A stretch of 47,584 nucleotides of DNA from positions 1 to 47,584 of the forward strand of contig JAAZEZ010000069.1 of assembly GCA_012511975.1 (NCBI GenBank), read 5' to 3'. The stretch comes from Bacteroidales bacterium (GTDB lineage Bacteria; Bacteroidota; Bacteroidia; Bacteroidales; UBA932). Below the pieces are notes generated by a model. It saw only the letters and a program-made list of their open reading frames with translations, searched no databases and had not been told where the DNA came from. A program made the position numbers and the translations under genes. Shown here one piece after another: positions 1,833-45,149 of this stretch (positions within the stretch are counted from its first letter, which is position 1; each line of letters starts with the position of its first letter).

Positions 1833-1852
1833 TCATCTGTAACAAACTATCC

Positions 1853-17298: not shown

Positions 17299-17840
17299 AA
17301 ATCCTTATGAAAAGAATACTTTCCACACTCGCAATCCTACTTTGCATACCATTGAGCAATCTTCCGGCGCAGAATCGGTTCATCCCGCAAGACACGACTA
17401 TCAATGTCAGCACGGAAGTGGAGGGTGACACTCTGCTTGCAGGCAGACAGATATTCTCGCTGCTCAGTGAATCATTCTCCGGCGGCGGTACGGTCATCGT
17501 GAGACAATCCGGTACCCTACGCAATGCTCTTCTTAGCCATATAAACAGCAACTCAGAGCGTGTAATTATCGGTTATCGTATAAGAATCTATTTTGACAAC
17601 AGCCAGAACGCCAGAGTGCGCTCTGAAGCTATCGCCAACCAGTTTGTAAGAGAGTATCCCCACATAAAGGCCTATCTCAGCCATGTCAATCCCTACTTCA
17701 AGGTGACTGTTGGCGACTTCCGCACCAAATACGAGGCGCAGCAGTTTGCAAGTCAAATAAGTAGCAGATACCCTTCTGTGTTTATTGTAAGAGAGCAAAT
17801 AGGATATCCTATCGTCTCCACCAGCGGTACTTCCCTTTGA
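17295..17840 (+). CDS. SPOR domain-containing protein
   Basis: The C-terminal part, YRIRIYFDNSQNARVRSEAIANQF...YFKVTVGDFRTKYEAQQFASQI, shows the typical SPOR repeat pattern. A signal peptide is present. Confidence 0.75.
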   Translation: MKILMKRILSTLAILLCIPLSNLPAQNRFIPQDTTINVSTEVEGDTLLAGRQIFSLLSESFSGGGTVIVRQSGTLRNALLSHINSNSERVIIGYRIRIYFDNSQNARVRSEAIANQFVREYPHIKAYLSHVNPYFKVTVGDFRTKYEAQQFASQISSRYPSVFIVREQIGYPIVSTSGTSL

Positions 17841-18768: not shown

Positions 18769-19570
18769 AGGCTTTCTCTCTTATAATATCTGTCCATTCT
18801 CGCAGCGATTTTTCCGAAGTGATGCTCTCGATGGGTATCGAGTCACCAAACCAGATCTCAAAACTGCTGTTTTTCTGTTTGAATAATTCGTGGGGAAGGA
18901 AAAGCATCTCAATGTTGAATTTGATACCGAGAAATTTCCTGACCTTAGCCAGAGCGTAAAAGAAATTGGAATTGCGTCCCGAAAAATATATCGGCACGAT
19001 ATCTCTTTTGTGGGCGATGGCCTTTTTAAGAAAATTGGTCTGCCACTGGGGATCTGTTATTTTTCCTTTTATTTTCCTTGAACAGAGTCCTGCCGGGAAA
19101 TAGAGTATCTGAGATTCTGATGAGTATGTATCGTTGATTAGTTGTGCATATTCACGGCTCATCTTTCCCACTTTGTTTACCGGAATAAAAAGCGACTCAA
19201 AAGGCTTGACATGCATTAGAAAATCATTCACGACAAATTTGATGTCGGGAAAGATCTTGCCGATAAGGGCAATCAACACCGAACCGTCCAACCCACCCAG
19301 AGGGTGATTGGAAACAAAGATGTATCTGCCTGACGGATCAATCTTCTCCATTCCGTGAGGCGTGTAGGTGATACCCAGATGTGCAAGTGCGTGCGTAGCA
19401 AACTCAACTCCCTCATAATCTCCATAAAGAGCAAGAATCTCGTTGATCTCATCCTGATGAACAAGTTTCTTAATCCGGTTGATTACAAATCCCGGTAGTT
19501 TCTTCGCCAACGACGGACTTTTAGCAGCAATAACTTGCTTTACATCTATCTTAAGTGGTGTCTGACTCAT
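18743..19570 (-). CDS. Lysophospholipid/1-acyl-glycerol-3-phosphate-type O-acyltransferase (GlsA/OlsA-like)
   Basis: PlsC-type catalytic motif region FVSNHPLGGLDG and FPAGLCSR. The start was set at ATG 19570 (MSQTPLKIDVKQ). The upstream extension of ORF 18743..19648 covers a terminator hairpin. Confidence 0.75.
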   Translation of the reverse strand: MSQTPLKIDVKQVIAAKSPSLAKKLPGFVINRIKKLVHQDEINEILALYGDYEGVEFATHALAHLGITYTPHGMEKIDPSGRYIFVSNHPLGGLDGSVLIALIGKIFPDIKFVVNDFLMHVKPFESLFIPVNKVGKMSREYAQLINDTYSSESQILYFPAGLCSRKIKGKITDPQWQTNFLKKAIAHKRDIVPIYFSGRNSNFFYALAKVRKFLGIKFNIEMLFLPHELFKQKNSSFEIWFGDSIPIESITSEKSLREWTDIIREKAYEANNPTG

Positions 19571-19587
19571 CGTTTCACTTTGATGTG

Positions 19588-19595
19588 CAAATATA
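19588..19595 (-). promoter_or_regulatory. Candidate -7 box (TATATTTG on the minus strand) for the acyltransferase pair
   Basis: Plus strand CAAATATA, 17 nt upstream of ATG 19570. Confidence 0.45.
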
Positions 19596-19611
19596 GACAA
19601 AAATGAAAACA

Positions 19612-19646
19612 CCGGCAATAAAACAAGAGGCGGCCTTCCGGCCGCC
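19612..19646 (-). terminator. Probable terminator at the end of the redox SusC/D operon
   Basis: GC-only 7-bp stem GGCGGCC-TTCC-GGCCGCC (19629..19646). On the minus strand it is followed by TCTTGTTTTATT. It lies 57 nt downstream of the 19703 stop. Confidence 0.6.
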
Positions 19647-19702
19647 ACTTGAAAAAAGAGAAATATTTTATCTACTGAAAAGTCTTGTTAATAATTTCTA
19701 CA

Positions 19703-20881
19703 TCAGTCCAGCAATTCTTGCAGTTTTGCCTCAATCTCTTCATGAGTCAGATTGCCAATTACCCTGCCATCCTTGTCAAGAAGGAAATAACTAGGAATAA
19801 AATGTACCGCGTAACTGCTGATGACTCTTGCCGAACTGTTTTCCACAGGAAATTCGTCAATCACATGTACCCATGGAGTCTGGTCCTCATCTATAGCCTT
19901 TACCCATTTATCATAACTTGTATCATTTGATACTCCTACAATCTCAAAACCTTTGTCGTGGTACTTTTCGTAAAGCTCTTTTAAAGCTGGCATACCGGCC
20001 CTGCAGGGGGAGCACCAGGAGGCCCAGAAATCAACCAGGACATATTGGCCCCTTAGTGAGGATAATGTCACATCATTGTCATCTCTGTCTTTCAATGTAA
20101 AATCGGGAGCAAGATCCCCCGGTTGTACTGCCCTCAATGCTTCAATCTCTTCCCTCAGATCTTTTGCAAGGTATGACTTACGCACTCGTTCAGAAAATTT
20201 AGCAAAAGCTTCTTCCTTCTCCTCAAGGGTTGTAGATGAAGAGGTATATATGTTATAGATTGCAATAGCAGCTTCAACATCAGGATTTGCTAAGCAATAG
20301 GCTAGAATGGCATCTTTTTGAGCATTAAAATATTTCTCCCTTAACTCTTTTCCATATTTCTGCTCGATTTCTGTTCTCATCCGAGTATAGCTATCGTAAT
20401 CTTTGAAGGATAGCTTGTCAGCCTCTTTTACTGCCTTAACATATTCTGCATATTGTTCCTCTGTGTCAATCGCCGAAAGCAATTCAACCATTCCCAGGGT
20501 AAAATCATTATTGGTGCCTCCAGAAACATTGGGGTCGGAAAAATATTTGCCATATTGTCCTTGATCAATGATGCCCTCCAGTTCGGGAGCAAACAGAATT
20601 ACCGCATTTTCTACATAAAACAGCCCTACGATAGGGGTCTCATTCTGCGGTATGACTGAAATCGAACCGCGTACTGGCTCTGCTACATTGCCATTGAACT
20701 CAAAAGCACCTGCAGACATCACAACCGTATCACTTACCTTTGTCTCATCAAGAGGATCGAGATAAGAGAGAACTGCAATTCCATCATATTCACCGCAATT
20801 GCCTTTGATTGTAAAGCCCGGCTGATTTGAGCAAGCAACAAGTGTTAGTGCTGTAATTGCACATATTATCGTTTGTTTCAT
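19703..20881 (-). CDS. TlpA/ResA-family thiol-disulfide oxidoreductase lipoprotein with an N-terminal DUF4369-like domain
   Basis: Lipobox LTLVACSN. N-terminal GFTIKGNCGEYDGIAVLSYLD... matches the DUF4369 pattern. The C-terminal thioredoxin fold has VDFWASWCSPCRAGMP (CxxC). Confidence 0.85.
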   Translation of the reverse strand: MKQTIICAITALTLVACSNQPGFTIKGNCGEYDGIAVLSYLDPLDETKVSDTVVMSAGAFEFNGNVAEPVRGSISVIPQNETPIVGLFYVENAVILFAPELEGIIDQGQYGKYFSDPNVSGGTNNDFTLGMVELLSAIDTEEQYAEYVKAVKEADKLSFKDYDSYTRMRTEIEQKYGKELREKYFNAQKDAILAYCLANPDVEAAIAIYNIYTSSSTTLEEKEEAFAKFSERVRKSYLAKDLREEIEALRAVQPGDLAPDFTLKDRDDNDVTLSSLRGQYVLVDFWASWCSPCRAGMPALKELYEKYHDKGFEIVGVSNDTSYDKWVKAIDEDQTPWVHVIDEFPVENSSARVISSYAVHFIPSYFLLDKDGRVIGNLTHEEIEAKLQELLD

Positions 20882-20886
20882 ATCTG

Positions 20887-22851
20887 TTATTTTACTGTCA
20901 ATGTGAATTCTTTTGTTTCTGGAGCATAGCAGGTCTTATCATTACAACACTGGTATGTGAATTTAATTTTCACCTGGTCCCCATGCTCCAAACCTTCGAT
21001 TTTGTAAATATAGTCACCCTTGTCCCTATAAATGGTGGTTTTCGAACCGGGAAGGCCTATAAATGCGGGTGCAATAAAGTCAACCTGCTTTGCATTTTCA
21101 GGGAGGTATAGCTCTGCTTTTGTTTCTATAAAAGGATCTTCATCAGACACCTTTGCATAAATGTAATGACCTACATGAATGTATTGAGATATAAGCACGG
21201 CAATTGTGCCGTCACCGTGTTCAACCAGTTCAGCCTCTAAGCAAACAGGATTTGCAGGGTCAGTCTTTGGACCTCGGCGGTCGCTTTGTAGAGGATTATT
21301 TATTGCCGCTTTTTTCAATAGATACTCCCTCTCCTGTTCATCCAGTCGTACTTGATAGTCATTACCCGGGACATCCTCAAAAGTATTAATAAGAAAGAGC
21401 CATCCACCCGATTCGGTAAAGAAGAGTTTATCTTTGTATGTTTCATACCAATCTCTCCACTGGACCGGAGTAGCAAAACGACAAAGGGTATAACGTTCAA
21501 GAACTGTCTTTGCGATTTCGACATCCTCTCCATTCTCGAGCATAGAAATCGCCTTGTCCAAAATACGGATATCATTGTTTGCGATACCTATATAGCGTGC
21601 CTCCTCATCAATATCAAGGGTGTATTCCCCAGGCTTACAATAGAAATAGTCCCTATTACGGTCATAGTATCTTGCGTATTCTGTGGCATCGGTGCCAAAG
21701 AAGTGGTATAATTCAGGTACTCTTTGCTTTAGATAATCAGAGAATGTTATGAGTTTCTGCTCGGGAAAATTGAGATAAAGTTTTTCAGTTCCACTAAGTT
21801 CCTCACCTTTATCCTGTTTTTCCTGTGCGGCTTTCTTAAATTCGGCAACTTGTCTGTTAAATTCGGCATTGCTGGCATTATAATCCTCCCAAGCTTCACG
21901 AGTAACAAGATATTTATAACCTTTGAGGTCATCTTTTACTGCTACAGGATCAAATTTCCTTGCAATCGGATGCTGACCTGCAAACTGTGAAATATAGACT
22001 ATAGAATTGACAAAAAGCGCCTTTGCCTCATCTGTCATATAGTCCGGTGAAGCCGAAAACCCCCAATGAAAATAGTTTGCATGACGTCCAATGGCAATGG
22101 CATCAATACTCTTAGCACAGGTGCCGCTTGAAATGACCTCTGTTTCAGGAGAATCCAGATAGCCTCCAGGACGTGAAACCATACCAATCTTGTAACCGGG
22201 ATTGTTTGTATAATTAACTGTCTGCATTGTAAACATCAACGTGGAGTCAGGTAGGGTTACTCCGTCCATTTTTGCATAATCATATGCTAGCGAAGGAGTT
22301 GCTTCCATTTTGATATTCAATTTCACCTTTAAAGGACCTTTGAATATAGGATGGTCACCATTCCAGTTGTGAGCCTTGTCTTCAAGGCATAGACAATACC
22401 AGTCATTTTTAGTACCAACTCTGATACCAATAAGTTCGCCCATAGATGCAATCGTTAATACGGGACGGTTGAAATCAAGTGGCAGATACTGTGCTTTTTC
22501 ATACTTTAACAACTTTCCGTCCGGACTATATTCCAAAATCCGTGGACTAATTGGATTAGGGGTGTGATCAAATATGGTTACGTCATATAGATCTGACATA
22601 TCTACCGTATAATCTGCAGCATCAATTACCTTGTATTTCTTGAAGTTCTTTTTGAGAAACTTATCAAATGAAGTCATCCTGGTCTGAGTACTTTTTGCAA
22701 TTGTCACACTATCCGGTTTGTCATCCAAACCCATCAATTCAATATCTGGGCTTCCACCTACAAACAAGACGCTTACCGACTGCTTTTTCTGTGCATTTAA
22801 ACCCAGAAAACAGTTCAGCAGAATTATTATAAATAAAAGTCTGAGTTTCAT
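20887..22851 (-). CDS. Secreted protein of unknown function (about 530 aa) fused to a C-terminal DsbD-alpha-like (DsbD N-terminal type) redox domain
   Basis: Signal peptide MKLRLLFIIILLNCFLGLNAQ. The last ~110 aa (VGHYIYAKV...KIKFTYQCCNDKTCYAPETKEFTLTV) follow the DsbD-alpha pattern, including the Cx5C pair followed by Y-x-P-E. I could not recognise the N-terminal part. Confidence 0.7.
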   Translation of the reverse strand: MKLRLLFIIILLNCFLGLNAQKKQSVSVLFVGGSPDIELMGLDDKPDSVTIAKSTQTRMTSFDKFLKKNFKKYKVIDAADYTVDMSDLYDVTIFDHTPNPISPRILEYSPDGKLLKYEKAQYLPLDFNRPVLTIASMGELIGIRVGTKNDWYCLCLEDKAHNWNGDHPIFKGPLKVKLNIKMEATPSLAYDYAKMDGVTLPDSTLMFTMQTVNYTNNPGYKIGMVSRPGGYLDSPETEVISSGTCAKSIDAIAIGRHANYFHWGFSASPDYMTDEAKALFVNSIVYISQFAGQHPIARKFDPVAVKDDLKGYKYLVTREAWEDYNASNAEFNRQVAEFKKAAQEKQDKGEELSGTEKLYLNFPEQKLITFSDYLKQRVPELYHFFGTDATEYARYYDRNRDYFYCKPGEYTLDIDEEARYIGIANNDIRILDKAISMLENGEDVEIAKTVLERYTLCRFATPVQWRDWYETYKDKLFFTESGGWLFLINTFEDVPGNDYQVRLDEQEREYLLKKAAINNPLQSDRRGPKTDPANPVCLEAELVEHGDGTIAVLISQYIHVGHYIYAKVSDEDPFIETKAELYLPENAKQVDFIAPAFIGLPGSKTTIYRDKGDYIYKIEGLEHGDQVKIKFTYQCCNDKTCYAPETKEFTLTVK

Positions 22852-22857
22852 TATTCG

Positions 22858-24300
22858 TTATTTATAGTTTTGTTTTATGTTTGGATTGTTGTTGATCACA
22901 TTCAGGGGAAATGGGAATATCCACATTGGGGAGTCATGCCTCAAAGTGAATTTATGACCGGCAAGGTCTCTTGTAAAGTCCTCCTCCCATCCTGAAATCT
23001 GATTCCATCTTTTACGTTGAATAAAATTGTAGCAGGAGTAGTTGTTTTCTCCATGAGATGTCTGTTTCAATCTGAAGATTGCATCCTCCTTGCTTGTTAT
23101 TTTACCTACCAATGGCTCATACACAGAAGGATCAATACGATTTACTCGAATTTTGTCGATAATCTCCCTTGCTGCATTGATGTTCCCTTTGTGTATCTCT
23201 GCCTCAGCCAATATAAGATACATATGAGTTGTTTTCAGCCCCATATGATTCCATCCAGAGTCAAGGTCGTATGTGAATGCATAATCAAGTCCCAGGTAAG
23301 ACATACCCATTCCCATTCCCGGAAAGAAATCATACATCATTTTATCAGTGGACATTTTATCAAGAGATGCATGGCCAGGTTCGAATCTTGCCTCTGACTC
23401 AGGGGTTCTCGCATTGAAGAACTCGGGATTGTGAACGTAGAAAAGATCTTCCTCGCATTTCATCTGAGGACGAAGCACTGCAGGGTACTGGCCCCCGAGA
23501 AGATAACCCTGCACCATTATTATCATTTCATTGTAATTTGCAATGGCATCATTTATGGCAAGTACTGATCTCGCAGCTGCTACAGCTTCATCATACTTCT
23601 GCATTGACATAAGAACCCATGCCTTTACTGCATAAGCTGCAGGTTTGCTGATTCTCATTTTGTTGATTGAAACATCAGGAAGAGCATTCAACGCCAATGC
23701 GGCATCTACATCTGCAAGGATATTATCATATACTTGCTGGACTGTAGCCTGCTCAGAGGGGTGCGAAATATCCCAGTCGTGCATCATGTAGGGGATACCA
23801 CCATCAGACGCAGCTGTTACCGGGTTATATGCTTTTGCAAATTTATTTACTGCAAGGTAGTGGTTATAGGCACGTAAAACCAGAGCTTCTGCCTTGAGTT
23901 GCTTTTTGGTAGATTCTGAACCGGAAGCCTCGTCAACTTTGGATATAACTGGATTAGCCACCCTGCCGATAATTGAATAGAATTCACTATAGTCACTATC
24001 ATTCGAGGTGAGTTCAGCCATCTTGTCCTGATTTGACTCATCCCAAGTCCACATTATCACATCCCTTGTTTTATTTGGCATAGAGAGTTGAGTGGAGACA
24101 TTGCTAAAAGTATAGAGCATATCTCCGGCCATTTGGTTAAAGTCAGAACCACTTTGATAAAACTCTCTATTGAGAAGCAATTCCAGTTCGTCTGTAGTGG
24201 AAAGCAGATTCTTACCTTTCGGCTGAATATCCGTAAACTGGGCACAGGATGTGGCAAACAATATCACACCTGTCAGTAAAAAATGTAATATCTTTTTCAT
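22858..24300 (-). CDS. SusD/RagB-family nutrient-binding outer-membrane lipoprotein
   Basis: Lipobox LFATSCAQ. The TPR-like helical sequence is typical of SusD homologues. It lies immediately downstream of the SusC-like gene (11-nt gap). Confidence 0.88.
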   Translation of the reverse strand: MKKILHFLLTGVILFATSCAQFTDIQPKGKNLLSTTDELELLLNREFYQSGSDFNQMAGDMLYTFSNVSTQLSMPNKTRDVIMWTWDESNQDKMAELTSNDSDYSEFYSIIGRVANPVISKVDEASGSESTKKQLKAEALVLRAYNHYLAVNKFAKAYNPVTAASDGGIPYMMHDWDISHPSEQATVQQVYDNILADVDAALALNALPDVSINKMRISKPAAYAVKAWVLMSMQKYDEAVAAARSVLAINDAIANYNEMIIMVQGYLLGGQYPAVLRPQMKCEEDLFYVHNPEFFNARTPESEARFEPGHASLDKMSTDKMMYDFFPGMGMGMSYLGLDYAFTYDLDSGWNHMGLKTTHMYLILAEAEIHKGNINAAREIIDKIRVNRIDPSVYEPLVGKITSKEDAIFRLKQTSHGENNYSCYNFIQRKRWNQISGWEEDFTRDLAGHKFTLRHDSPMWIFPFPLNVINNNPNIKQNYK

Positions 24301-24311
24301 GATAGTTTCGA

Positions 24312-27300
24312 TTAGAAGTTGATGTTAATACCGAAAATAAATGTAGATGGCAATCTTATGCCCATAGTCTCCGGATCAACTTTGACCTTGTTGCCCATCC
24401 AAAGAGCTCTGGGATTGTCAATCTGGAACTTCAGGGAGGCACGTTGGATGTTAACGGCATCAAGCCAAGATTCGGGAAAATCGTAACCCAGCACGATGTT
24501 CCTGATTTTCAGAAAAGCAGCACTATGGATTGCATTATTGCCATAACGGGGTTCGTTACCAAGTGAGTATGAAGCATATCGTCCGATACCGGGAGTATTT
24601 GTGGGATTGTCGGGGGTCCAGGCATTTACAAAATAACTAGCAACGGCACTATATGGTACTCCGAATGTTTCGACCTCAGGTAACGCACGCATTACATGGC
24701 CACCATAATATGCCATCAACACACTTAGACTGAAACCCTTCCAAGTCAAGCGATTATCGAAGCTGGCTACTACTATCGGCTCACTTTGTCCGGAGTATTC
24801 AAGAATATCTATGCTTTTCCCAGATACGCTGTGAGCTTTGTTGTCATCTTCTATATACCAAAGAGTCATACCCTTCTCACCTTCCTGATCGCTAATGCCC
24901 GCAAATCTGTATGACCATACCGCACTGGTTGGATAATCTACCCTGTACGGAGTACTCACCAACTGATATGCCATTGTAGAAGGATTTTCAATATCAGTCA
25001 CTTTATTTTTGTTAATTGCAAATGTTAGACTACTTGACCATCCAAAATCCTCCCTGCTACTCTCTCTAAACCAGTCAGCCGTCAATGACACTTCTACACC
25101 TCTGTTGACCATATCTGCCATATTCATAAACATTGAGCTGAATCCGGTAGAAGGGTCAAGGGTTTTGTATGAGAAGAGATCTTTGCCCACTTTATTGTAG
25201 AAATCTAACGATCCACTGAACCTGTTCTCAGCAAAGGAGTAATCAATACCGATATTGGTGGTACGTGTCTGCTCCCATTTCAAGTTGGGGTTAGCAGGAG
25301 ATTCGATTACACCGTAAGGAAGGTTGGTCAGCTCGTTAAAGCCTGAACTTCTTGCCGTCATATAACTTGTTGCCCCTTGATAGATGTTGCCAGTCACACC
25401 ATAGCTGATGCGAAGCTTGAGTACATTTATCCAGTTAACAGGGCTCATAAACTCCTCGTTATTGATGTTCCATGAGAAACCTGCTGACCACAACGGTTTA
25501 CCACGGAACTTCACATTAAGACCATATACATCCGCGTAATCTTTTCTAAAAGAACCAAATACATTGTATCTGTTATCATAAGTGTATGTGAAGTTGGCGT
25601 AACCCGATGCGTAGCGATGTTTCTGTTCAATGACGGGAGTCATGTTATTTTTGATATACGGAGTATATATGAACTGATTTGCAGGGTAACTGCCAAGATA
25701 TGTGGAGTAGTTCATCAATGCTAGAGTGGCGAAGTCAATTACCTGGGTAGATGCTGTCTGAAGCTGATCGTCATAACCGAGCATCAAACTACGTGTACCC
25801 TGGCTCAGGGTCTCCCTGAACTCGATACCCGCAAGTGCGGCAATGGTATGTTTACCGAATGTATTGGCATAATTAACCTGACCGCGGCCTGTCCAGTAAG
25901 CACCATCAGTATTGGTCGCCGATTTGAAACCTCCACTTCGTGGTGTAAGATAAGTAAGTGTACCATCAGGATTCTCCTGTGTATAGGCGTTACGCATCAA
26001 TCTAGCAGCATGGCTTTCCTGTGTTGCCAGCCAGTCCGATGTTGTATGGTTGCTCTCATACACAAACTGGGCTGTTGCTGTCAGACCATTAATTATCTTA
26101 AAAAGAAGATCACCGTGATAACGCATATACTGACGTTTTGTAGTCACGGTGTTGTTGTAATGCTCTGCAACGATGTCGGTGCCCAAAGGATAATAACCCT
26201 CCACTTCATTCTTATCCCAGTACTCATTTCCGTCATACCAGTAAAAGAATTTTTTATAGCTTCCATCCTCATTATACATTGTCTCGTATGCTGGTATCAT
26301 CCATGGATTAGTAAAGGATGCATTGTAATCATAACCTTGTGTCCTGCTCTTATCATAAATGCCGTTCACACTCAGGGTCGCTGTCAGCCATTTGGCAATG
26401 TCATAGCTGCCTTTGTAATTAATGTTGATCTGTTTGTAACCGGAGTTAATAACTCCTTGATTATCCTGTTTGTAATTGATTACAAAGTTGCTATTGAAGT
26501 TGTCAGCCCTGGAACGTATGGCAAGATTGTATTGTTGGAGAATCTTTCTCAAATATACAGCATCTGCATACTCCTGCGCAAAATTGTTCTGACTATATTT
26601 GCTGAGTAAGATATTGAGCTGTTCCTTGGAAATCTGTCCTATAGCATTTTTATAGTATGCATACTGGATTGGTGAAATAGCACCTGTGCCACTATTCAAT
26701 GATGATTCAAATGATCCTACAGGGTCAGCTACTTCACCATCGTTGTTGTTAAAGTAGTAATCATAATACTCTGATTCCGTTTTTACCTGTTGAGCGGCAT
26801 TCATATAGAAGTTATCTCCATAATCCATATTTGTTTTCTCGTAAAGAGTGATGTTTGAAGAAAAGTCAACATCGATTTTACCTTTATCCTTCGCACTTTT
26901 GGTATTAATAACGATGATACCATTGGATGCGCGCGCACCATAGATGGCGGCGGCTGCGGCATCCTTCAACACATTAATGCTCTCAATATCGTAAGGGTTG
27001 AGATCATCGAGTGAAGTCTCCACCGGTAGGCCATCAAGCACGATAAGCGGCTGTGTCTCCGAATATATTGAGCTCACGCCGCGAATTGTGAGTTTACCTC
27101 CGTACGTACTCAAACCTGCCACCTTACCTTCGAGACTATTTAGCAGATTGGGGTTATATCGCTCTTCAAGTGCTTTGGAACTTACGGTTGAAATAGATCC
27201 GGTCACCTTTTCTTTTTGAATGTTTTGATAACCGGTTACTACAATTTCATCTATGAAAAGGCGGCTGGAGGTCATTATAACATTCATAACGCTCCTACCG

Positions 27301-27878
27301 TTAGTAGGAATTACCACTGTTTCCATTCCAAGAAGCGTGAACTCAAGTTCAGCCTCATTTACATTTTTCACATCGATTGAATAGTTGCCGTTCTCATCGG
27401 AAATAGCATAAGCATTAGTCTTCTTGTCAACAACGGCAACACCAGCAAGCTTTTCACCATTAGTGTCATAAATGGACCCCTTGACTGTAACTTTTAGTTC
27501 CCTGGTTCCTGCCGATGGTTTTGGAGTTTGGTCTACAGAGGTTGTAGAGGAGGGTGCTAAAGCGATCTGTTTATCAAGGATGGTATAACTGATACCGTTT
27601 GGAATTAAGATTCTATCCAATACGGAGGTCAGCGTTTCATTAGTCACCTTGATGGTAATGATGTTTTTTGCTCCTATAAGCGCGTCATTGTAAACAAAGG
27701 TGTAATCCGTCTGTTTCTGAATTTCGTTTAATACGCTTTTCAAGGGCGCCTTTTCGAAATTCAATGTGATATTCTGAGCACCCGCGATTTGCGCTGATGC
27801 CATCAGTGCCACAGCCATGGCTAGAATCACCTTGACGGACCTGTTTTGGAAGAGTTTTTTTAAAAATCTCATAATCAA
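24312..27878 (-). CDS. SusC/RagA-family TonB-dependent outer-membrane transporter with an N-terminal STN signalling domain
   Basis: 1188 aa. STN-like ITLNFEKAPLKSVLNEIQKQTDYTFVY; a CarboxypepD_reg-like VTVKGSIYDTNGEKLAGVAVV; plug LTIRGVSSIYSETQPLIVLDGLPV; and a C-terminal aromatic residue (…GININF). Confidence 0.93.
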   Translation of the reverse strand: MIMRFLKKLFQNRSVKVILAMAVALMASAQIAGAQNITLNFEKAPLKSVLNEIQKQTDYTFVYNDALIGAKNIITIKVTNETLTSVLDRILIPNGISYTILDKQIALAPSSTTSVDQTPKPSAGTRELKVTVKGSIYDTNGEKLAGVAVVDKKTNAYAISDENGNYSIDVKNVNEAELEFTLLGMETVVIPTNGRSVMNVIMTSSRLFIDEIVVTGYQNIQKEKVTGSISTVSSKALEERYNPNLLNSLEGKVAGLSTYGGKLTIRGVSSIYSETQPLIVLDGLPVETSLDDLNPYDIESINVLKDAAAAAIYGARASNGIIVINTKSAKDKGKIDVDFSSNITLYEKTNMDYGDNFYMNAAQQVKTESEYYDYYFNNNDGEVADPVGSFESSLNSGTGAISPIQYAYYKNAIGQISKEQLNILLSKYSQNNFAQEYADAVYLRKILQQYNLAIRSRADNFNSNFVINYKQDNQGVINSGYKQININYKGSYDIAKWLTATLSVNGIYDKSRTQGYDYNASFTNPWMIPAYETMYNEDGSYKKFFYWYDGNEYWDKNEVEGYYPLGTDIVAEHYNNTVTTKRQYMRYHGDLLFKIINGLTATAQFVYESNHTTSDWLATQESHAARLMRNAYTQENPDGTLTYLTPRSGGFKSATNTDGAYWTGRGQVNYANTFGKHTIAALAGIEFRETLSQGTRSLMLGYDDQLQTASTQVIDFATLALMNYSTYLGSYPANQFIYTPYIKNNMTPVIEQKHRYASGYANFTYTYDNRYNVFGSFRKDYADVYGLNVKFRGKPLWSAGFSWNINNEEFMSPVNWINVLKLRISYGVTGNIYQGATSYMTARSSGFNELTNLPYGVIESPANPNLKWEQTRTTNIGIDYSFAENRFSGSLDFYNKVGKDLFSYKTLDPSTGFSSMFMNMADMVNRGVEVSLTADWFRESSREDFGWSSSLTFAINKNKVTDIENPSTMAYQLVSTPYRVDYPTSAVWSYRFAGISDQEGEKGMTLWYIEDDNKAHSVSGKSIDILEYSGQSEPIVVASFDNRLTWKGFSLSVLMAYYGGHVMRALPEVETFGVPYSAVASYFVNAWTPDNPTNTPGIGRYASYSLGNEPRYGNNAIHSAAFLKIRNIVLGYDFPESWLDAVNIQRASLKFQIDNPRALWMGNKVKVDPETMGIRLPSTFIFGININF

Positions 27879-27895
27879 GATGTTAAGGTTAATTT

Positions 27896-28414
27896 TTATT
27901 TAATTAGTTGTTTAAGAGTCAGATAAAATTCAGGACTTTCACCAAGAGTGACGTTAACAATAGTTCCTTGGGGATCGATGATTATCTTTGTGGGATAACC
28001 CTTAACGAAATAAATCTGTGTGATATCCGGATTTTTTCCATTGACCACATTTATCCAAGGAAGCTCATTGTCAGCGACGGTTTTCCGCCATTTATCCGGT
28101 TGGTCTTTGCACGCTATGCCTACAAATTCAACATTCTTACCTTTGAGTTCTGCATAGGCCTCTTTCATTTCTGGAAAACCTTTAATGCACCATTTACACC
28201 AGCTACCCCAGAAATCGAGCACAACATATTTACCCTTTAGGGAAGAAAGTCTAAATTCATTTCCATGAACATCAGTCGCCGTAAAATCAGGTGCATCCTG
28301 GCCCACAGAAAGAGTTTCCCGCTTACCCTGAATGAGATTTGCTCGTGAAGCAACCTGTGCAAACATAGTTGTTACTGATACAACAATCAAAACAGTGAGA
28401 AGAAGTTTTTTCAT
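27896..28414 (-). CDS. TlpA/ResA-like periplasmic thioredoxin (thiol-disulfide oxidoreductase)
   Basis: VLDFWGSWCKWCIKGFPE (WCxxC). Signal peptide MKKLLLTVLIVVSVTTMFAQ, using the ATG at 28414; the alternative start is at 28438. Confidence 0.85.
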   Translation of the reverse strand: MKKLLLTVLIVVSVTTMFAQVASRANLIQGKRETLSVGQDAPDFTATDVHGNEFRLSSLKGKYVVLDFWGSWCKWCIKGFPEMKEAYAELKGKNVEFVGIACKDQPDKWRKTVADNELPWINVVNGKNPDITQIYFVKGYPTKIIIDPQGTIVNVTLGESPEFYLTLKQLIK

Positions 28415-28465
28415 ACATTTAGATGGTTTCCTTAACATTATTACAATTTTCCACGCTTATTCACT

Positions 28466-28499
28466 AAAAAAAGAGAGAAAATCTCAATTTTCTCTCTTT
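28466..28499 (-). terminator. Rho-independent terminator (minus strand) between dsbD and the tlpA-susC genes
   Basis: Perfect 13-bp stem (plus strand AAAGAGAGAAAAT-CTCA-ATTTTCTCTCTTT). On the minus strand it is followed by a 7-T run. It lies about 100 nt downstream of the dsbD stop. Confidence 0.7.
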
Positions 28500-28595
28500 C
28501 ACTCCAGTAACTTATCCTATGAAACTACATTGCCATCGTAGCGTATAACAAGATGAACGATACCGCAAAAATGTCACCGTTTCATATAATGTCTA

Positions 28596-30659
28596 CTAAT
28601 GTTGTTCATTTTTGTATGCCTTGACTCCCTCTTCAAGCCATTGGATGAAGGATTCCACGTCGAGGTTGTAGCCGCGGGGCTCCACCAACTGTCTGCCGTT
28701 GTTATCCTCCAGAACATAATATGGCTGAGCATTGACTCCGTATCTTGTCAATGCAAAATGGGAGTTGATCTTGCCGAGTGTTTTGAGTACTTTTCCATTA
28801 TCATTCGTCACCCAATTCTCCTCAGGGACCTGTTTCTTGTCATCTGCATAGAGGGCACAGATTACATAATCCCTTTTGAGAATCTCAAGCACCCTCGGAT
28901 CACTCCATACCCTCGCCTCCATCTCACGACAATTGACGCATCCGTGGCCGGTAAAATCTACGAATACCGGTTTACCGACCTTTGCGGCGTGAGCCTGAGC
29001 CTCCTCCAGATCAAAAAAGCCGCTCAATCCATGAGGAAGTTTAAGAAAATCCCCATATTTGACAGTATATGCGCTTGCCGCTTCAGCCTGAGTGGTACGA
29101 CTTCCGTCTGTTGGTATCACAAAATCTTGTGTGCTGATAGGAGGCAAATAACCGGAGAGGCCTTTTAAAGGAGCACCCCACATACCGGGGATCATATATA
29201 CCACAAAGCTGAAGGATGCTATCGCGAGTACCAGGCGAAAAACCCCAATGTGCTGGAGGTCGCTATCGTGCTTGAACTTGAGTTTGCCCAGCAGGTAAAA
29301 TCCCAATAATGTAAAGCAGACAATCCATATCGCAAGATAAATCTCCCTGTCCAGGAGTCCCCAGTGATAGACCTGATCAGCAACGCTGAGGAACTTAAAA
29401 CCAAGTGCCACCTCGATGAATCCAAGCACCACCTTAACGGAGTTGAGCCATCCACCACTCTGGGGAATATTACTCAGCAGAGAGGGGAAGAGGGCGAAGA
29501 TCATGAAAGGGAGCGCAAAAGCCAAAGAGAAGGCCAGCATAGTGATAATTGGGGCCCAAAACTCACCTGCAGTGGATTTTATGAGTACCGTACCCACAAT
29601 GGGGCCTGTACATGAGAAGGATACCAGCACGAGAGTCAGAGCAAGGAAAAACACTCCTCCCAATCCCTGACGTTTACTCGCCTGCTGGTCACTTTTATTG
29701 ACCAGCTTGCTCGGCATTACTATCTCGAATGCACCAAAGAAGGAGGCGGCAAAGGCCATAAATACCAGGAAGAAGAGGATGTTGGGCAGCCAGTGGGTAG
29801 CCAACCAGTTGAAGATATCTGCAGTGACGGCATCTCCTCCTACCAGACGTGTTATGATGATTATAGCCGCAATAGGAACTGTATATAGTAATACTATAAA
29901 TACACCGTACATTATGGCGCGGAACCTGCCTCTTGCTTTGTCCTCAGAACCCTTAATGAAGAATGATACGGTCATCGGCACCATGGGGAAAACACAAGGA
30001 GTCAGTAATGCTGCAAATCCCCATAATATAGCCTCAATGATCATAGCCCAAAGCGAACCGCCCCTTGTAGCCCTTTCGGAGGCCGACATCTGAACTTCAC
30101 TATCAGGTGATGAGACAGCGGCGATCTCGTCAGACTCTTCCTGAGTAAGTCCGGGAGCTTCCTGAGCTGTAGCATTCTGCACTTCCGATGCAAGAAAGGG
30201 TGCTTGCAGCTCTATTTTCATGGTATGGTCATCCGGCGGAGTACAGCTGGTATCGTCGCAGGTCATCCACTCGACCATTACTTCCACAGTGGCTTTCGGT
30301 ACTGCAAGTTTTACCTTCTGAACAAAAGTGACGCTCTTCTCGTAGTAGCCGATTACCATACCGAACATAGGATCATCCACCTTGATCGGCTTCTCAATGG
30401 AACTGGTCTCTCCCACCTTGGTCACACCATTGGGAAGGGTAAAGATAAATGTTGTGGCATTAGGACCGTTTTCATAAGGACCCATATCGTACATATGCCA
30501 TCCCGGGGCAATGGAAGCCGTTATTTTTATATCGAATGTTTTATCACCAACTGCCTCCGAAGCAATTTTCCAGGAAACAAGATCCGACTGTGAATATGCT
30601 AAAATAGAAATTCCTGATAGGAGCGTCAGGACAAAAAATAATTTTTTGATGAATCGCAT
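28596..30659 (-). CDS. dsbD: Thiol:disulfide interchange protein DsbD (alpha domain, CcdA-type membrane core, C-terminal thioredoxin)
   Basis: Alpha domain PGWHMYD...EWMTCDDTSCTPP; membrane cysteines LLTPCVFPMVP and VSFSCTGPIVG; gamma domain VDFTGHGCVNCREME. 687 aa. Confidence 0.9.
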   Translation of the reverse strand: MRFIKKLFFVLTLLSGISILAYSQSDLVSWKIASEAVGDKTFDIKITASIAPGWHMYDMGPYENGPNATTFIFTLPNGVTKVGETSSIEKPIKVDDPMFGMVIGYYEKSVTFVQKVKLAVPKATVEVMVEWMTCDDTSCTPPDDHTMKIELQAPFLASEVQNATAQEAPGLTQEESDEIAAVSSPDSEVQMSASERATRGGSLWAMIIEAILWGFAALLTPCVFPMVPMTVSFFIKGSEDKARGRFRAIMYGVFIVLLYTVPIAAIIIITRLVGGDAVTADIFNWLATHWLPNILFFLVFMAFAASFFGAFEIVMPSKLVNKSDQQASKRQGLGGVFFLALTLVLVSFSCTGPIVGTVLIKSTAGEFWAPIITMLAFSLAFALPFMIFALFPSLLSNIPQSGGWLNSVKVVLGFIEVALGFKFLSVADQVYHWGLLDREIYLAIWIVCFTLLGFYLLGKLKFKHDSDLQHIGVFRLVLAIASFSFVVYMIPGMWGAPLKGLSGYLPPISTQDFVIPTDGSRTTQAEAASAYTVKYGDFLKLPHGLSGFFDLEEAQAHAAKVGKPVFVDFTGHGCVNCREMEARVWSDPRVLEILKRDYVICALYADDKKQVPEENWVTNDNGKVLKTLGKINSHFALTRYGVNAQPYYVLEDNNGRQLVEPRGYNLDVESFIQWLEEGVKAYKNEQH

Positions 30660-30680
30660 TGCTATATTTTATTGTTATTA

Positions 30681-31616
30681 TCAATAGAGGGAAACACGGT
30701 TGTCCTGCACGGATGATCTCACACCACAGGTAAGACGAAGCAAATTGAGCACCTGTCCAAGTGACTCCGAGCTAAAACTTGCCGTAAAAACATTGTCCAT
30801 CACTTTTGTGTTGTTGACAGTAATGACCACTCCATACCAACGCTCGATTTTTTTGATCACCTCCTCGATAGGAGTATTGTCAAATACCAGATATCCATCT
30901 TTCCATGAGGTATTTAGCCTCATATCAGCAATCTTGCGCCCTGCGGAGGAAAGGCCTTCAGTGGAAACAATTATCTCTTCTTTTTCCTTAAGCACTATCT
31001 CCTTGTCTTGACCGTCTGTCATAATCGAAACCCTGCCAGATACAAGGGTGAGTTTAAGATTTTTGTCATTACTGTATGAAGATAGATTGAATTCGGTGCC
31101 GGTGACATTTACTATAACACCCTTCTTCGTGCGAACAAACATTGGCCAGTCACGATTGCTTTTCACTTTAAAGTATCCTTCTCCATCGAGTTCGACTACA
31201 CGCTTGCCATCCTCGAATCTTGAAGGACATGTGAGTCTGCTGTCGCTGTTTAGAATTACCTCGCTGCCGTCAGGAAGTATTATACTGCCCTTAACGCCGG
31301 GATTTACACTATATTTGAGAATGGCATCATTCTGCTCAAGATCGGGTACCACCATTATTAGTTTATACTCCGCTGTGATATTTTCAAGCTGTTTTTCAAG
31401 ACTTCTGTTGTGAAGAATAATAATACCACTAACAACCAGCAACACAGCTGCCGCAACTGAAATTGCCCATACGAAACTACGCTTTAGTGGAGTTCTGTCA
31501 TAGCCGACGGCACATCTAATATCATGCAATGACTCAGGAGAGGGTGCACTGTTAGGCAGATTCGAAAATACCCACTCTGCCTTTTCTTTATAATCTTGTA
31601 TGTTTTTATCTTTCAT
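30681..31616 (-). CDS. FecR-family anti-sigma factor
   Basis: Single TM segment (VWAISVAAAVLLVVSGIIIL), a periplasmic FecR domain and a C-terminal ERWYGVVITV motif (DUF4974-type). Confidence 0.88.
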   Translation of the reverse strand: MKDKNIQDYKEKAEWVFSNLPNSAPSPESLHDIRCAVGYDRTPLKRSFVWAISVAAAVLLVVSGIIILHNRSLEKQLENITAEYKLIMVVPDLEQNDAILKYSVNPGVKGSIILPDGSEVILNSDSRLTCPSRFEDGKRVVELDGEGYFKVKSNRDWPMFVRTKKGVIVNVTGTEFNLSSYSNDKNLKLTLVSGRVSIMTDGQDKEIVLKEKEEIIVSTEGLSSAGRKIADMRLNTSWKDGYLVFDNTPIEEVIKKIERWYGVVITVNNTKVMDNVFTASFSSESLGQVLNLLRLTCGVRSSVQDNRVSLY

Positions 31617-31666
31617 TTCTTACATTTTGTTACAGTTAATACAGAAACACTAAACAGTTCCCTAAA

Positions 31667-32245
31667 TTATTGTTGGAAAATCATCAATTTTTTGCGAAAT
31701 ATTTTCAAGGCTTTAGAGATGTTAAACTCCACTTTTTTTACCGAAATCTCCAATTTGCGGGCAATTTCCTCATAAGAAAGCCCTTCTTTTCTGCTCATGA
31801 CAAAAATCGTTCTGACTAGGTCCGGTAGTTCATTATAGGTAACATCTATGATCCTTTTCATATCCAGCGAATCAATTATGGAAACCAGGCTGTCGTCCGT
31901 CAATGCTCTGATCATATTGTCAAAACCCGAACGTTCAATAGAATCAGTCATTCTTGTACGAAGCATACTTAAATGATTAAGAGCTTTGTTGCGAGCAATA
32001 GTGTATAAATATGAGCGCAAATTCTGCTTAGGATCAATGCGGTGTCTCGTATCCCATAATGTAAGGAATGTATCCTGCGCCAAATCCGCTGCTACATCCG
32101 AATCTCCCGTATAATGGAAAATAAAGAAGCGTATGTTCTCAAATTCCGCTTTAAAAAGCACTTCAAACGCATCCTTGCTCGACGACTTGATCGCAGTCGA
32201 AAGCGAGCGAATAACATCTTGTTCCCATTTGTGATAAGTGCTCAT
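31667..32245 (-). CDS. ECF (sigma-70 family) RNA polymerase sigma factor
   Basis: Region 2 (FIFHYTGDSDVAADLAQDTFLTLW) and region 4 HTH (SYEEIARKLEISVKKVEFNISKAL). It lies directly upstream of the FecR gene. Confidence 0.9.
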   Translation of the reverse strand: MSTYHKWEQDVIRSLSTAIKSSSKDAFEVLFKAEFENIRFFIFHYTGDSDVAADLAQDTFLTLWDTRHRIDPKQNLRSYLYTIARNKALNHLSMLRTRMTDSIERSGFDNMIRALTDDSLVSIIDSLDMKRIIDVTYNELPDLVRTIFVMSRKEGLSYEEIARKLEISVKKVEFNISKALKIFRKKLMIFQQ

Positions 32246-32273: not shown

Positions 32274-32318
32274 ACCAAATTGTCAAAACGATGGAAAAAT
32301 TATTACCTTTGTTATGAA

Positions 32319-33725
32319 ATGTTAAAGCAGACATTACAACAGACACAGACTACAAAGCTCTCTCCGCTGCAGATTCAAACCATCAAGCTTCTGGAGCTGC
32401 CGATGCTGGAACTTGAGCAGAAGATACAGAGGGAGATAGAAGAAAATCCTGTCCTGGATGAAGTTATACCGGAATCCGAGGAAGAGGATGCGGCTGATAT
32501 TTCCCTTGACTCATACGACCAGGACGATCCTACACCCTCATACAAACTTCGTGTCAATAATCAGGGCAAAGACCTCAAGCCTCAGTACAATACATTCTCC
32601 GTTCAGGAAAGTTTTCACCAAAACCTTATAAAACAACTAGGTTTCTACTCTCTTGACAACAGAAAAAAGCAAATTGCCACCTTCATGATTGGAATGCTTG
32701 AGGACGATGGATACCTCAGGCGTGATCTGGACTCCCTTACGGATGATATCGCCTTCCGTCTGGGTATTGAAACCACTGAAGATGAACTGGAGGAGATTCT
32801 ATTTATAATACAGGAGTTTGAGCCTGTGGGCGTCGGCGCAAGAGACCTTAGAGAGTGTCTCCTGCTGCAAATTGCCACCAAGAAACAAACTCCCTCGCAA
32901 CAACTTGCCGAAACCATCCTCAGGGACTATTTCAACGAATTCTCCAGAAAGCATTATTCCAAACTCATGTCCCGGCTGGGTGTCACAAATGATGAGCTCA
33001 AAGAGGCTATCGAAGAGATCCAGCGCCTTAATCCCCGCCCCGGCGGACAGATTGACGACTCCTATTCAGAACAAACTCAACAAGTGATTCCGGATTTTAT
33101 ATTGGAACTCAAAGAGGGCGAATTGGTGATGACAATGCCCAGATACTCCATACCTGAGCTCAGAGTCAACAGACGCTACGCAGATATGCTGATAAAGGGC
33201 TCAAATGCAAACACCAAAGCAGGTAAGGAGGCCGTCACCTTTGTTAAAAAGAAACTTGACGACGCCAAATGGTTTATCGAGGCTATAAAGCAGCGCCAAA
33301 ACACTCTTCAGAACACAATGAACGCCATTATAGACTTCCAGAGAGAATACTTTATGGATGGTGATGAGACCAAGCTCAAGCCTATGGTACTTCGCAATAT
33401 CGCCGAAAAAGCCAATCTGGACATCTCGACCATTTCCAGAGTGGTCAATTGCAAATATATACAGACTCATTTCGGCATCTATCCGTTGAAATATTTCTTC
33501 TCCGAAGGCCTTATCAATGAAGATGGAGAGGAGGTTTCCACCCGCGAAATTAAAAATGTCCTCGTCCGGATTATAGACAACGAAGACAAAACCGCTCCAC
33601 TGACGGACGAGAGCATAGTTGAAGCCCTTTCGGAAAAGGGTTACAAGGTAGCCAGACGCACGGTAGCCAAATACCGCGACCAGCTTGGCATACCTGTAGC
33701 CAAACAAAGAGTGGAATTGTTATAA
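32319..33725 (+). CDS. rpoN: RNA polymerase sigma-54 factor
   Basis: N-terminal MLKQTLQQTQTTKLSPLQIQ and the RpoN box ARRTVAKYR near the C-terminus. The start was set at ATG 32319 within ORF 32280..33725. A TACCTTTG box lies at 32304..32311. Confidence 0.93.
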   Translation: MLKQTLQQTQTTKLSPLQIQTIKLLELPMLELEQKIQREIEENPVLDEVIPESEEEDAADISLDSYDQDDPTPSYKLRVNNQGKDLKPQYNTFSVQESFHQNLIKQLGFYSLDNRKKQIATFMIGMLEDDGYLRRDLDSLTDDIAFRLGIETTEDELEEILFIIQEFEPVGVGARDLRECLLLQIATKKQTPSQQLAETILRDYFNEFSRKHYSKLMSRLGVTNDELKEAIEEIQRLNPRPGGQIDDSYSEQTQQVIPDFILELKEGELVMTMPRYSIPELRVNRRYADMLIKGSNANTKAGKEAVTFVKKKLDDAKWFIEAIKQRQNTLQNTMNAIIDFQREYFMDGDETKLKPMVLRNIAEKANLDISTISRVVNCKYIQTHFGIYPLKYFFSEGLINEDGEEVSTREIKNVLVRIIDNEDKTAPLTDESIVEALSEKGYKVARRTVAKYRDQLGIPVAKQRVELL

Positions 33726-42543: not shown

Positions 42544-42570
42544 GTTTTAACTCTTAATTACTAATTATTA

Positions 42571-42593
42571 CTCGGAACTCAATACTCAGAACT
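42571..42593. repeat. Junction repeat R1 (CTCGGAACTCAATACTCAGAACT), plus-strand orientation
   Basis: It shares AACTCAATACTC and ACTCAGAACT with R2 (45056..45081). It is the reverse complement of the GAGTTCTGAGT units in R3. It abuts or overlaps the HlyD stop codon. Confidence 0.7.
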
Positions 42594-43698: not shown

Positions 43699-43726
43699 TG
43701 TATGTTGTTGTTATTATTGTTTGTTT

Positions 43727-45040: not shown

Positions 45041-45055
45041 ATTATTCTAAATCAA

Positions 45056-45146: not shown

Positions 45147-45149
45147 TAT

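Follow-up and report, generated by a model that had tools for sequence, protein, structure and literature searches.

The DNA analyzed here (the window) is a 47,584-nucleotide stretch from a Bacteroidales bacterium, contig JAAZEZ010000069.1, which is very closely related to the metagenome-assembled genome (MAG) "Bacteroidales bacterium UBA3543" (96% protein identity). Eight co-directional genes on its minus strand encode an extracytoplasmic function (ECF) sigma factor, a FecR-type anti-sigma factor, DsbD, a secreted TlpA-like protein, a SusC/SusD pair (SusCD), a secreted 654-residue protein, which we designate P654, and a lipoprotein that joins DUF4369 to a second TlpA-like domain (Table 1). 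A preliminary description, made from the sequence alone, had read this cluster as a sigma-factor-gated SusCD locus in which a periplasmic disulfide-reductase relay takes the place of glycan-degrading enzymes. Translation of the open reading frames (ORFs) and searches of Pfam and NCBIfam bore out the coordinates, domains and motifs of all eight genes, and every domain that had been expected was found. The cysteine motifs TCDDTSC, TPCVFP, FSCTGP, GCVNC, WCKWC, WCSPC and CCNDKTC all were readable in the translations. In the same searches, none of the eight proteins matched a family of glycoside hydrolases, polysaccharide lyases, carbohydrate esterases, carbohydrate-binding modules, other esterases or peptidases. 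The domain searches thus uphold an STN/FecR/ECF-type SusCD locus with no recognizable carbohydrate-active enzyme (CAZyme), and the accessory genes were confirmed to encode thiol-redox proteins throughout. We report here the domain structure and conservation of P654 and its linkage to SusCD across the Bacteroidales, and we weigh what such a locus may do.

Table 1. Features of the redox-associated SusCD locus, in order of transcription, with positions numbered from the first letter of the window.
Feature	Position	Strand	Basis
ECF-type sigma-70 factor, 192 aa	31667..32245	-	Sigma70_r2, Sigma70_r4_2; TIGR02985 Bacteroides-type ECF, 136 bits (cutoff 126)
FecR-type anti-sigma factor, 311 aa, single hydrophobic segment at ~48-70	30681..31616	-	FecR and FecR_C
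Full-length DsbD, 687 aa, six cysteines	28596..30659	-	DsbD_N, DsbD_TM, Thioredoxin_7
Terminator-like hairpin and U-run in the DsbD-TlpA gap	28461..28510	-	Sequence, RNA fold
Secreted TlpA/ResA-like thioredoxin-fold protein, 172-180 aa, WCKWC	27896..28438	-	AhpC-TSA, Redoxin, Thioredoxin_8; signal-peptide-like N terminus
SusC/RagA-family TonB-dependent transporter, N-terminal STN, 1188 aa	24312..27878	-	STN, CarbopepD_reg_2, Plug, barrel
SusD-like lipoprotein, 480 aa	22858..24300	-	SusD-like_3, SusD_RagB; lipobox ...ATSC
P654, secreted three-domain protein, 654 aa, signature cargo	20887..22851	-	AF2 model, homologues, neighborhoods
P654 residues ~21-300, class I glutamine-amidotransferase-like/ThuA-like domain	21952..22791	-	Foldseek; pLDDT 89.8
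Codons of P654 C153-L-C155 (CxC)	22387..22395	-	Homologue conservation
P654 residues ~301-520, helical domain with conserved RYT and W..W motifs	21292..21951	-	DSSP of models; conservation
P654 residues ~530-654, DsbD-alpha-like Ig-fold domain	20890..21264	-	Pfam DsbD_N, Foldseek, PDB profile
Codons of the P654 C636-x4-C641 pair	20929..20946	-	Homologue conservation
DUF4369 and TlpA-like lipoprotein, 392 aa, WCSPC	19703..20881	-	DUF4369, AhpC-TSA/Redoxin; lipobox LVAC
GC-rich intrinsic-terminator-like hairpin at the cluster end	19629..19646	-	Seven G-C pairs and T-run; RNA fold

The genes are separated by 5 to 50 nt, except that 181 nt lie between dsbD and the first TlpA-like gene, for which the start first chosen (28414, MKKLLL...) is likelier than the ORF start at 28438. 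In this gap lies a perfect hairpin of 14 bp with a U-run behind it (-20.9 kcal/mol, z of -4.67; 0 of 200 shuffled sequences were as stable), which is probably a terminator that splits the cluster into two transcription units. The units are likely to be ECF-FecR-DsbD and TlpA-SusC-SusD-P654-DUF4369/TlpA. The close gaps originally described stand, that of 181 nt excepted, but DsbD apparently is transcribed together with the sigma and anti-sigma genes, with the hairpin setting it apart from TlpA-SusC. ECF-type SusCD loci usually express their regulators apart from the transporter operon. Pfam identified the signaling parts as STN (43.4 bits), FecR (45.9 bits), FecR_C (68.3 bits) and Sigma70_r2/r4_2, which at the level of sequence is the equipment of Fec-type trans-envelope signaling. 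The rpoN (sigma-54) gene (32280-33725, plus strand) diverges from the ECF sigma gene at a distance of about 35 nt, leaving a very short common intergenic region, and a sigma-70-like match at 11 of 12 positions (32286-32257) is oriented towards the ECF gene. Rfam and tRNA scans of the region found no RNA element.

A cysteine pair is present in each of the three DsbD domains: C-x4-C in alpha, TPC plus SC in the membrane domain and CVNC in gamma. The DsbD score against NF001419 (136 bits) is under that model's cutoff of 330; the sequence is nevertheless that of a full-length DsbD, and electron transfer is predicted for it. In the closest relatives, a gene of the Beta-lactamase family (serine hydrolase) lies just upstream of dsbD (L003:900-2246, L004 and L005), and a similar family member with DUF3471 occurs elsewhere in the window (1769-3385, plus strand). 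Both TlpA-like proteins show thioredoxin-fold matches, a CxxC motif and an export signal (a signal peptide and a lipobox, respectively). They are assigned at the superfamily level only, because NCBIfam ResA/TlpA scores fall under the equivalog cutoffs (102 bits for the 180-aa protein against the ResA subfamily). The closest structures to the 392-aa lipoprotein are Bacteroides structural-genomics "thiol-disulfide oxidoreductases," ResA, Etrx and TlpA. No acidic surface-export signal was obvious after the lipobox cysteine in the TlpA-like lipoproteins examined. The reductases had been placed in the periplasm or at the surface; this reading of the lipobox flank favors the first location and not the second.

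P654 matched a single Pfam family, DsbD_N, over residues 554-651 (28.7 bits, cutoff 25), and residues 1-530 had no match in Pfam, NCBIfam, PHROGs or PDB sequences. An AlphaFold2 (AF2) model built on a 34-sequence alignment reached a predicted local distance difference test score (pLDDT) of 88.9 and a predicted template modeling score (pTM) of 0.75, with low confidence at residues 17-19 (signal peptide) and 519-527 (linker). When the full-length model was compared with the PDB using Foldseek, only the C-terminal nDsbD domain was matched. The last ~120 residues aligned with 1l6p (E of 2.6e-7) and with about 17 other nDsbD structures, among them 3pfu, 1jpe and 6dps (E of 1e-7 to 1e-5), and 1l6p also was recovered by a PDB profile match (E of 3.8e-4). 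As modeled, this C terminus is an nDsbD domain, combining an Ig-like fold with a conserved redox cysteine pair. The pair, C636/C641, has the C-x4-C spacing of the alpha domain of the locus DsbD and is followed by A-P, where DsbD has P-P. Descent of the domain as a recent copy of that alpha domain was rejected: the two share no BLAST similarity, and the stand-alone nDsbD-like genes described below match P654, not DsbD.

Residues 21-525 of P654 were modeled separately (pLDDT of 89.8) for a second Foldseek run. The best matches were a ThuA-like Bacteroides protein (4jqs, E of 1.1e-4), PabA (8rp2, E of 3.7e-4) and the glutamine amidotransferase (GATase) domains of GMP synthases, with target-normalized TM-scores of ~0.55. 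The fold of residues ~21-300 is thus shared with the ThuA-like/class I GATase group (BACUNI_01602, 4jqs; E of 1e-4, TM of ~0.53), whereas sequence identity is ~12%, there is no Pfam match, and P654 adds the helical and nDsbD domains. The helical domain (~300-520) apparently has no PDB match, judging from alignment lengths only, since the Foldseek alignments (at most ~340 columns, to targets of 190-250 residues) were no longer than the GATase-like domain. Mapping by secondary structure, which is not rigorous, indicated that the canonical GATase nucleophile elbow (~135-137) is not conserved in P654, that the CxC motif lies on the next strand instead, and that H257-x-N259 occupies the place of the amidotransferase His-x-Glu. 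The unconserved elbow and the position of the CxC suggest that P654 is amidotransferase-like in fold alone; a canonical Cys-His-Glu amidotransferase or peptidase was not supported by this mapping. The preliminary description had called the protein an unknown ending in a DsbD-alpha-like domain. The latter stands, but the N-terminal ~500 residues are not featureless: the models show a GATase1/ThuA-like fold, in which the invariant CxC lies, and behind it a helical domain.

We found at least 746 homologues of P654 at 90% clustering, and those that bear a name are annotated "hypothetical" or "DsbD N-terminal domain-containing." Conservation was examined in 77 homologues (40-96% identity) from 80 genomic loci. 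C153, C155, H257, C636 and C641 were invariant (77/77), as was the whole tetrapeptide C-L-C-L, and H167 was conserved in 67 of the 77. C457, a candidate third redox cysteine, was rejected, being kept in 51/77. Conservation of the cysteine pairs in orthologues, on which the relay proposal had been staked, held for C636/C641, for the newly noticed C153/C155 and for the CxxC of the TlpA-like neighbors of P654 loci (82/83). The CxC was present in all 29 members of a set that included remote short forms with no nDsbD domain (29-58% identity). A phmmer search of 1.84 billion representatives with the N-terminal 505 residues returned 711 clusters (50% identity) at an E of 1e-3 or below and 195 at 1e-30 or below. 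The family has three architectures: proteins of ~650 aa with the nDsbD domain, proteins of ~470-520 aa without it, and fusions of ~980-1010 aa with DUF4369/TlpA at either end.

A pattern scan of one genome per species located 154 loci with P654 relatives, 80 of which were retrieved. The carriers include Segatella copri, Prevotella, Phocaeicola, Bacteroides, Alistipes, Odoribacter, Tidjanibacter, Muribaculaceae/Duncaniella, Dysgonamonadaceae and many rumen MAGs. Neighbors within 9.5 kb of P654 were counted by profile searches in the 44 loci whose flanks extend for 7 kb or more in both directions. SusC was found in 43/44 loci and SusD in 43/44; because both were present in 43 of these well-flanked loci, the adjacency of P654 and SusCD is not due to chance. 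FecR accompanied P654 in 33 loci, an ECF sigma factor in 32 and at least one thioredoxin-fold gene in 31, with up to four such genes on the same strand. P654 lies directly after susD, directly before susC (in S. copri/Prevotella) or behind one to three TlpA-like genes. The survey of neighborhoods that had been called for thus revealed that the linkage of SusCD, TlpA-like proteins and the 654-aa family is kept across the Bacteroidales in several gene orders. No CAZyme or peptidase family occurred among the sampled recurring unlabeled neighbor families of the 80 loci. An M16 peptidase was considered as a conserved Bacteroidales partner and rejected (2/80 loci). Several genomes carry at least two paralogous P654/SusCD loci at ~40% identity (L001 and L075 in UBA3543; also L011, L031 and L051), which implies diversification for different ligands.

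DsbD followed a different pattern. It was found in 5/44 loci, which make up the closest clade to the window, and was rejected as a conserved member. The complete DsbD relay that had been described is present in this locus but is not conserved beyond those five loci and an independent case (L086); with so few, the in-locus relay is lineage specific. What is conserved is a core of SusCD and P654, which TlpA-like proteins usually accompany. DsbD nonetheless has been recruited to such loci at least twice, at different positions. In L086 (958-17521), one operon combines two P654 paralogues (642 aa with nDsbD and 506 aa without), five thioredoxin-fold domains, one gene being a tandem double, and a full DsbD at its far end.

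Natural fusions and splits further support the tie of the redox genes to P654/SusCD. TlpA precedes P654 in the fusions P0155 and P0167 and follows it in P0163. P0155 (DUF4369-TlpA-core-nDsbD) is a single 1009-aa ORF in a SusC-SusD-TlpA-[fusion]-ECF-FecR locus (L081). Conversely, a stand-alone nDsbD-like gene adjoins a short P654 core in L083, L084, L087 and L089. L083 and L087 are ECF-FecR-SusC-SusD loci in which the nDsbD-like gene encodes ~170 aa and which also hold an M16 peptidase (920-940 aa) and TlpA-like genes. In L084/L085, the nDsbD-like gene overlaps the start of the short core and SusCD is not nearby (L084:7393-9518). The neighbors there encode a sulfotransferase, a luciferase-like monooxygenase, a major facilitator superfamily (MFS) transporter, PhyH and a SnoaL-like protein, and the host is possibly not a member of the Bacteroidota. 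In the SusD-linked L089 (1-12000, GCA_030540825.1), TlpA-like and stand-alone nDsbD-like genes alternate with FG-GAP/VCBS propeller genes ahead of a short P654 core. This array suggests a modular grammar of nDsbD, X and TlpA, where X possibly is an unrelated fold. It is the C-terminal domain of Bacteroidales P654 (E down to 1e-14), and not DsbD alpha, that the stand-alone nDsbD-like proteins match, so the split and fused forms are true equivalents.

Of the transporter pair, SusC matched TIGR04056 (550 bits), SusD matched SusD-like_3 (79.7 bits), and their genes are 11 nt apart. The locus has the adjacent susC and susD by which a polysaccharide utilization locus (PUL) is recognized operationally, but by domain content it lacks the CAZymes of one. 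Compared with the ECF/anti-sigma SusCD loci of Bacteroides, such as the host O-glycan PULs of B. thetaiotaomicron, it shares the susC/susD adjacency, the STN domain of SusC, FecR, the ECF factor and lipoprotein genes behind susD; unlike them it has no glycoside hydrolase, lyase or esterase, and its accessory genes are all thiol-redox genes plus P654. The nearest solved relative of SusC is the glycan SusC homologue 8aa4, followed by ButC and RagA, while that of SusD is ButD (8ypt, E of 4.5e-13). ButCD imports the ubiquitin-like toxin BfUbb (PMC11467351). RagAB (peptides) and ButCD (BfUbb) also are SusCD pairs with no nearby CAZymes, although the similarity is weak and their loci have neither redox genes nor ECF/FecR.

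Invariant cysteine pairs, gene fusion and fission, repeated recruitment of DsbD and the kept adjacency to an STN-type SusCD argue that these parts form one functional system. We propose, with a probability of roughly 45%, that it is a ligand-inducible SusCD importer whose dedicated machinery is a periplasmic thiol-disulfide relay rather than glycan enzymes, with a cysteine-rich, disulfide-bonded peptide or small protein as its most probable cargo. Binding of the substrate to SusCD would cause STN to signal to FecR, freeing the ECF sigma factor to switch on the TlpA-SusC-SusD-P654-TlpA operon. Reducing power would pass from cytoplasmic thioredoxin to DsbD, encoded in the locus here and presumably elsewhere in most carriers. 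DsbD would hand electrons on both to the thioredoxin-fold proteins of TlpA/CcmG type and to P654, at its DsbD-alpha-like domain. This domain, flexibly tethered, would keep the CxC of the amidotransferase-like domain reduced, and P654, the TlpA-like proteins or both would reduce the imported cargo. To our knowledge, nDsbD exchanges electrons only with thioredoxin-fold partners (cDsbD, DsbC, DsbG and CcmG). Since the Ig-fold alpha domains of the DsbD pathway trade electrons with such partners alone, the predicted order is thioredoxin, DsbD, the TlpA-like proteins in exchange with the nDsbD-like domain of P654 and, finally, the P654 CxC; the last reducing step may fall to the TlpA-like proteins or to the CxC site. 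As these parts are coupled to an importer that senses its ligand, reduction of the imported cargo is the simplest reading. Our leading guess for that cargo is a disulfide-bonded peptide or small protein because there is no CAZyme family in the eight genes, an M16 peptidase is present in two distant loci of like architecture, and the nearest solved SusD is ButD.

Several observations weigh against this proposal. A TlpA-like gene within 9.5 kb is missing from about 30% of P654 loci, and DsbD is confined to the five loci noted above. The Bacteroidales loci lack a peptidase, the only M16 genes nearby (L016 and L018) being outside the operon. The likeness of SusC/SusD to ButCD and RagAB is weak, and glycan-type SusC homologues score equally. 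P654 also has a conserved polar set (R58, D90, H167, E238, K247, R256, N282, Y286, D415 and R453-Y-T) that persists in the remote forms. The pattern looks like a putative active or ligand-binding site and resembles a small-molecule or metal site more than a protein-disulfide reductase; such a pocket would suit a small-molecule or metal substrate about as well as it would a disulfide-bonded peptide or protein.

The strongest of the alternatives, although unlikely in our judgment, is that P654 is a novel thiol-dependent reductase of the periplasm, mechanistically like MsrA/B, ArsC or 3'-phosphoadenosine 5'-phosphosulfate (PAPS) reductase, acting on an imported oxidized low-molecular-weight compound. 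This could be a sulfoxide, a mixed disulfide (cystine, glutathione disulfide or a coenzyme disulfide), a polysulfide or a selenium species, and P654 would be regenerated via its nDsbD-like domain and the TlpA-like proteins. The invariance of the CxC together with a charged and polar constellation typical of an enzyme pocket accords with this, as do the flavodoxin-like/GATase1-like fold, which often is catalytic, and the short P654 forms found outside SusCD contexts beside small-molecule enzymes (sulfotransferase, luciferase-like monooxygenase, PhyH and MFS; L084). In Neisseria and Streptococcus, periplasmic Msr enzymes receive their electrons from TlpA-like proteins, and Etrx1/2 are among the closest solved relatives of the locus TlpA-like lipoprotein. 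However, a SusD lipoprotein and a 1188-aa SusC are rarely needed for small molecules, P654 showed no similarity to known reductase families in the Pfam, NCBIfam and PDB searches, and the canonical GATase nucleophile position, as far as the non-rigorous mapping goes, is unconserved.

Acquisition of a metal or metalloprotein is somewhat less likely. SusCD would import a metal chelate or a small Cys-ligated metalloprotein (ferredoxin-, rubredoxin- or metallothionein-like), the P654 CxC would bind the released metal or cluster, and TlpA and nDsbD would keep the ligand thiols reduced, a scheme comparable to FusA/FusC and to copper delivery from TlpA to ScoI. CxC motifs bind Cu(I) or As(III) in Cox11, CCS and ArsR, and an STN/FecR/ECF circuit of the Fec type is the classical regulator of iron uptake; yet ECF/anti-sigma SusCD loci of Bacteroides usually are glycan responsive. 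A TonB-dependent transporter (TBDT) with a periplasmic M16 protease, as encoded in L083 and L087, is the paradigm of ferredoxin import by Fus (PMC6071955, PMC6042079), in which a folded small protein is imported and then processed in the periplasm, and redox enzymes have been proposed to replace proteases in some Fus-like clusters (PMC6793856). Fus is proteobacterial, however, and has no SusD, TlpA or nDsbD modules, while M16 is confined to these distant loci; the window locus has none and so does not have the Fus pairing. M16 likewise is absent from the Bacteroidales operons, no metal-binding family was matched, and the P654 core has only two invariant cysteines, given the variability of C457. 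A 2026 preprint mentions in passing a DUF4369-thioredoxin lipoprotein beside TBDTs in Muribaculaceae and ties it, speculatively, to iron and reactive oxygen species.

Less probable again is a role in envelope redox protection, in which the TlpA-like proteins and P654 would repair or protect oxidized envelope cysteines, possibly those of the transporter, when the ECF factor is active under oxidative conditions. DsbD-fed systems guard single cysteines against sulfenylation in E. coli (DsbG/YbiS), and the same preprint associates thioredoxin-family genes beside TBDTs with a high-fat-diet, oxidative gut environment. The tight tie to one SusCD lineage (43/44) and to an STN-type transporter fits a general stress role poorly, as do several paralogous loci per genome (L001 with L075; L011). 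Finally, an ordinary PUL with CAZymes encoded elsewhere and redox genes as unrelated neighbors is hardly credible: a PULDB-style definition does ask only for a susC/susD pair and the ThuA-like fold is loosely linked to sugar metabolism, but even at 40% identity and in different families the redox genes stay beside SusCD, their order varying and some genomes having them fused to each other, the sampled recurring neighbors include no CAZyme family, and terminator-like hairpins delimit the cluster.

The locus is flanked by housekeeping genes, with rpoN, cysS and an M3 peptidase on one side and acyltransferase/GNAT, radical-SAM MiaB-like and amidohydrolase genes on the other, and is therefore taken to be chromosomal. 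Directly downstream (17809-19648, minus strand) lie two overlapping genes, one matching Acyltransf_2 (283 bits) and the other GNAT Acetyltransf_5. Together they look like the N-acyl amino acid (glycine/ornithine) lipid synthesis module of Bacteroidota, which likewise consists of two genes, and they are taken as unrelated to the cluster because of the strong terminator-like hairpin that sets them apart from it. A 253-aa Cys-rich ORF antisense within susC (25848-26609, plus strand) is almost certainly a spurious shadow ORF, and a MacB/FtsX-type ABC efflux cluster with an outer-membrane efflux protein (41245-47171, minus strand) is unrelated to the redox locus.

In the E. coli DsbD pathway, electrons pass from thioredoxin to DsbD beta, gamma and alpha and then to DsbC, DsbG or CcmG. 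The present system shares with this pathway and with ScsB/ScsC a six-cysteine DsbD, CcmG/TlpA-like acceptors and an Ig-fold alpha-type domain as shuttle, but has an extra alpha-like domain fused to, or beside, a non-thioredoxin CxC protein. Elsewhere, the DsbD pathway serves cytochrome c maturation or disulfide isomerization, whereas here it lies within a TonB-dependent uptake operon. A secreted or lipid-anchored thioredoxin fold with CxxC is common to TlpA/ResA/CcmG and Etrx1/2-MsrAB2; in contrast, the present locus has no cytochrome c, Sco/CoxB or Msr partner, up to five thioredoxin domains occur per P654 locus, and DUF4369 is added at the N terminus. Full-text literature searches found no paper characterizing the combination of SusCD with P654 and redox genes, in agreement with the preliminary description, which had been aware of no characterized function for it. 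Apart from the preprint, TlpA and DUF4369 genes figure, with modest changes, in a study of the iron stimulon. What is new is the P654 family, its linkage to a SusCD lineage and an extra DsbD-alpha-like module serving a non-thioredoxin CxC domain. The SusCD locus and the DsbD reductive pathway are known kinds that are extended here, and there is a realistic chance that the whole is a new functional class.

In its boldest form, which we put forward tentatively and at less than even odds, the proposal is that P654 represents a new class of periplasmic thiol-dependent enzymes, with a CxC on a glutamine-amidotransferase-like fold recharged by its own DsbD-alpha-like domain. SusCD plus P654, with or without TlpA and DsbD, would then be a hitherto unrecognized "reductive utilization locus" with which anaerobic Bacteroidota sense, import and reductively unlock an oxidized nutrient, be it disulfide-locked peptides or proteins or an oxidized species of sulfur, selenium or a metal. 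Direct tests are feasible, since the ECF/anti-sigma switch provides a genetic handle and carriers are in culture, among them Segatella copri, Phocaeicola intestinalis Sa1CVN1, Bacteroides gallinaceum ET474, Prevotella sp. P2-180 and Muribaculaceae MF13079. Gut Bacteroidota acquire their nutrients mainly through SusCD loci, and almost all of the loci studied hydrolyze glycans. The present analysis delineates a conserved lineage of SusCD with a putative thiol electron relay and an uncharacterized protein family as its dedicated cargo. If import is indeed reductive, it would represent a new nutrient class or detoxification route in dominant gut anaerobes, and the DsbD pathway would gain a new branch and a new type of acceptor. 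The large TlpA-like/DUF4369 expansion in Bacteroidota would acquire its first functional context, and the PUL paradigm would be widened from hydrolysis to redox chemistry.

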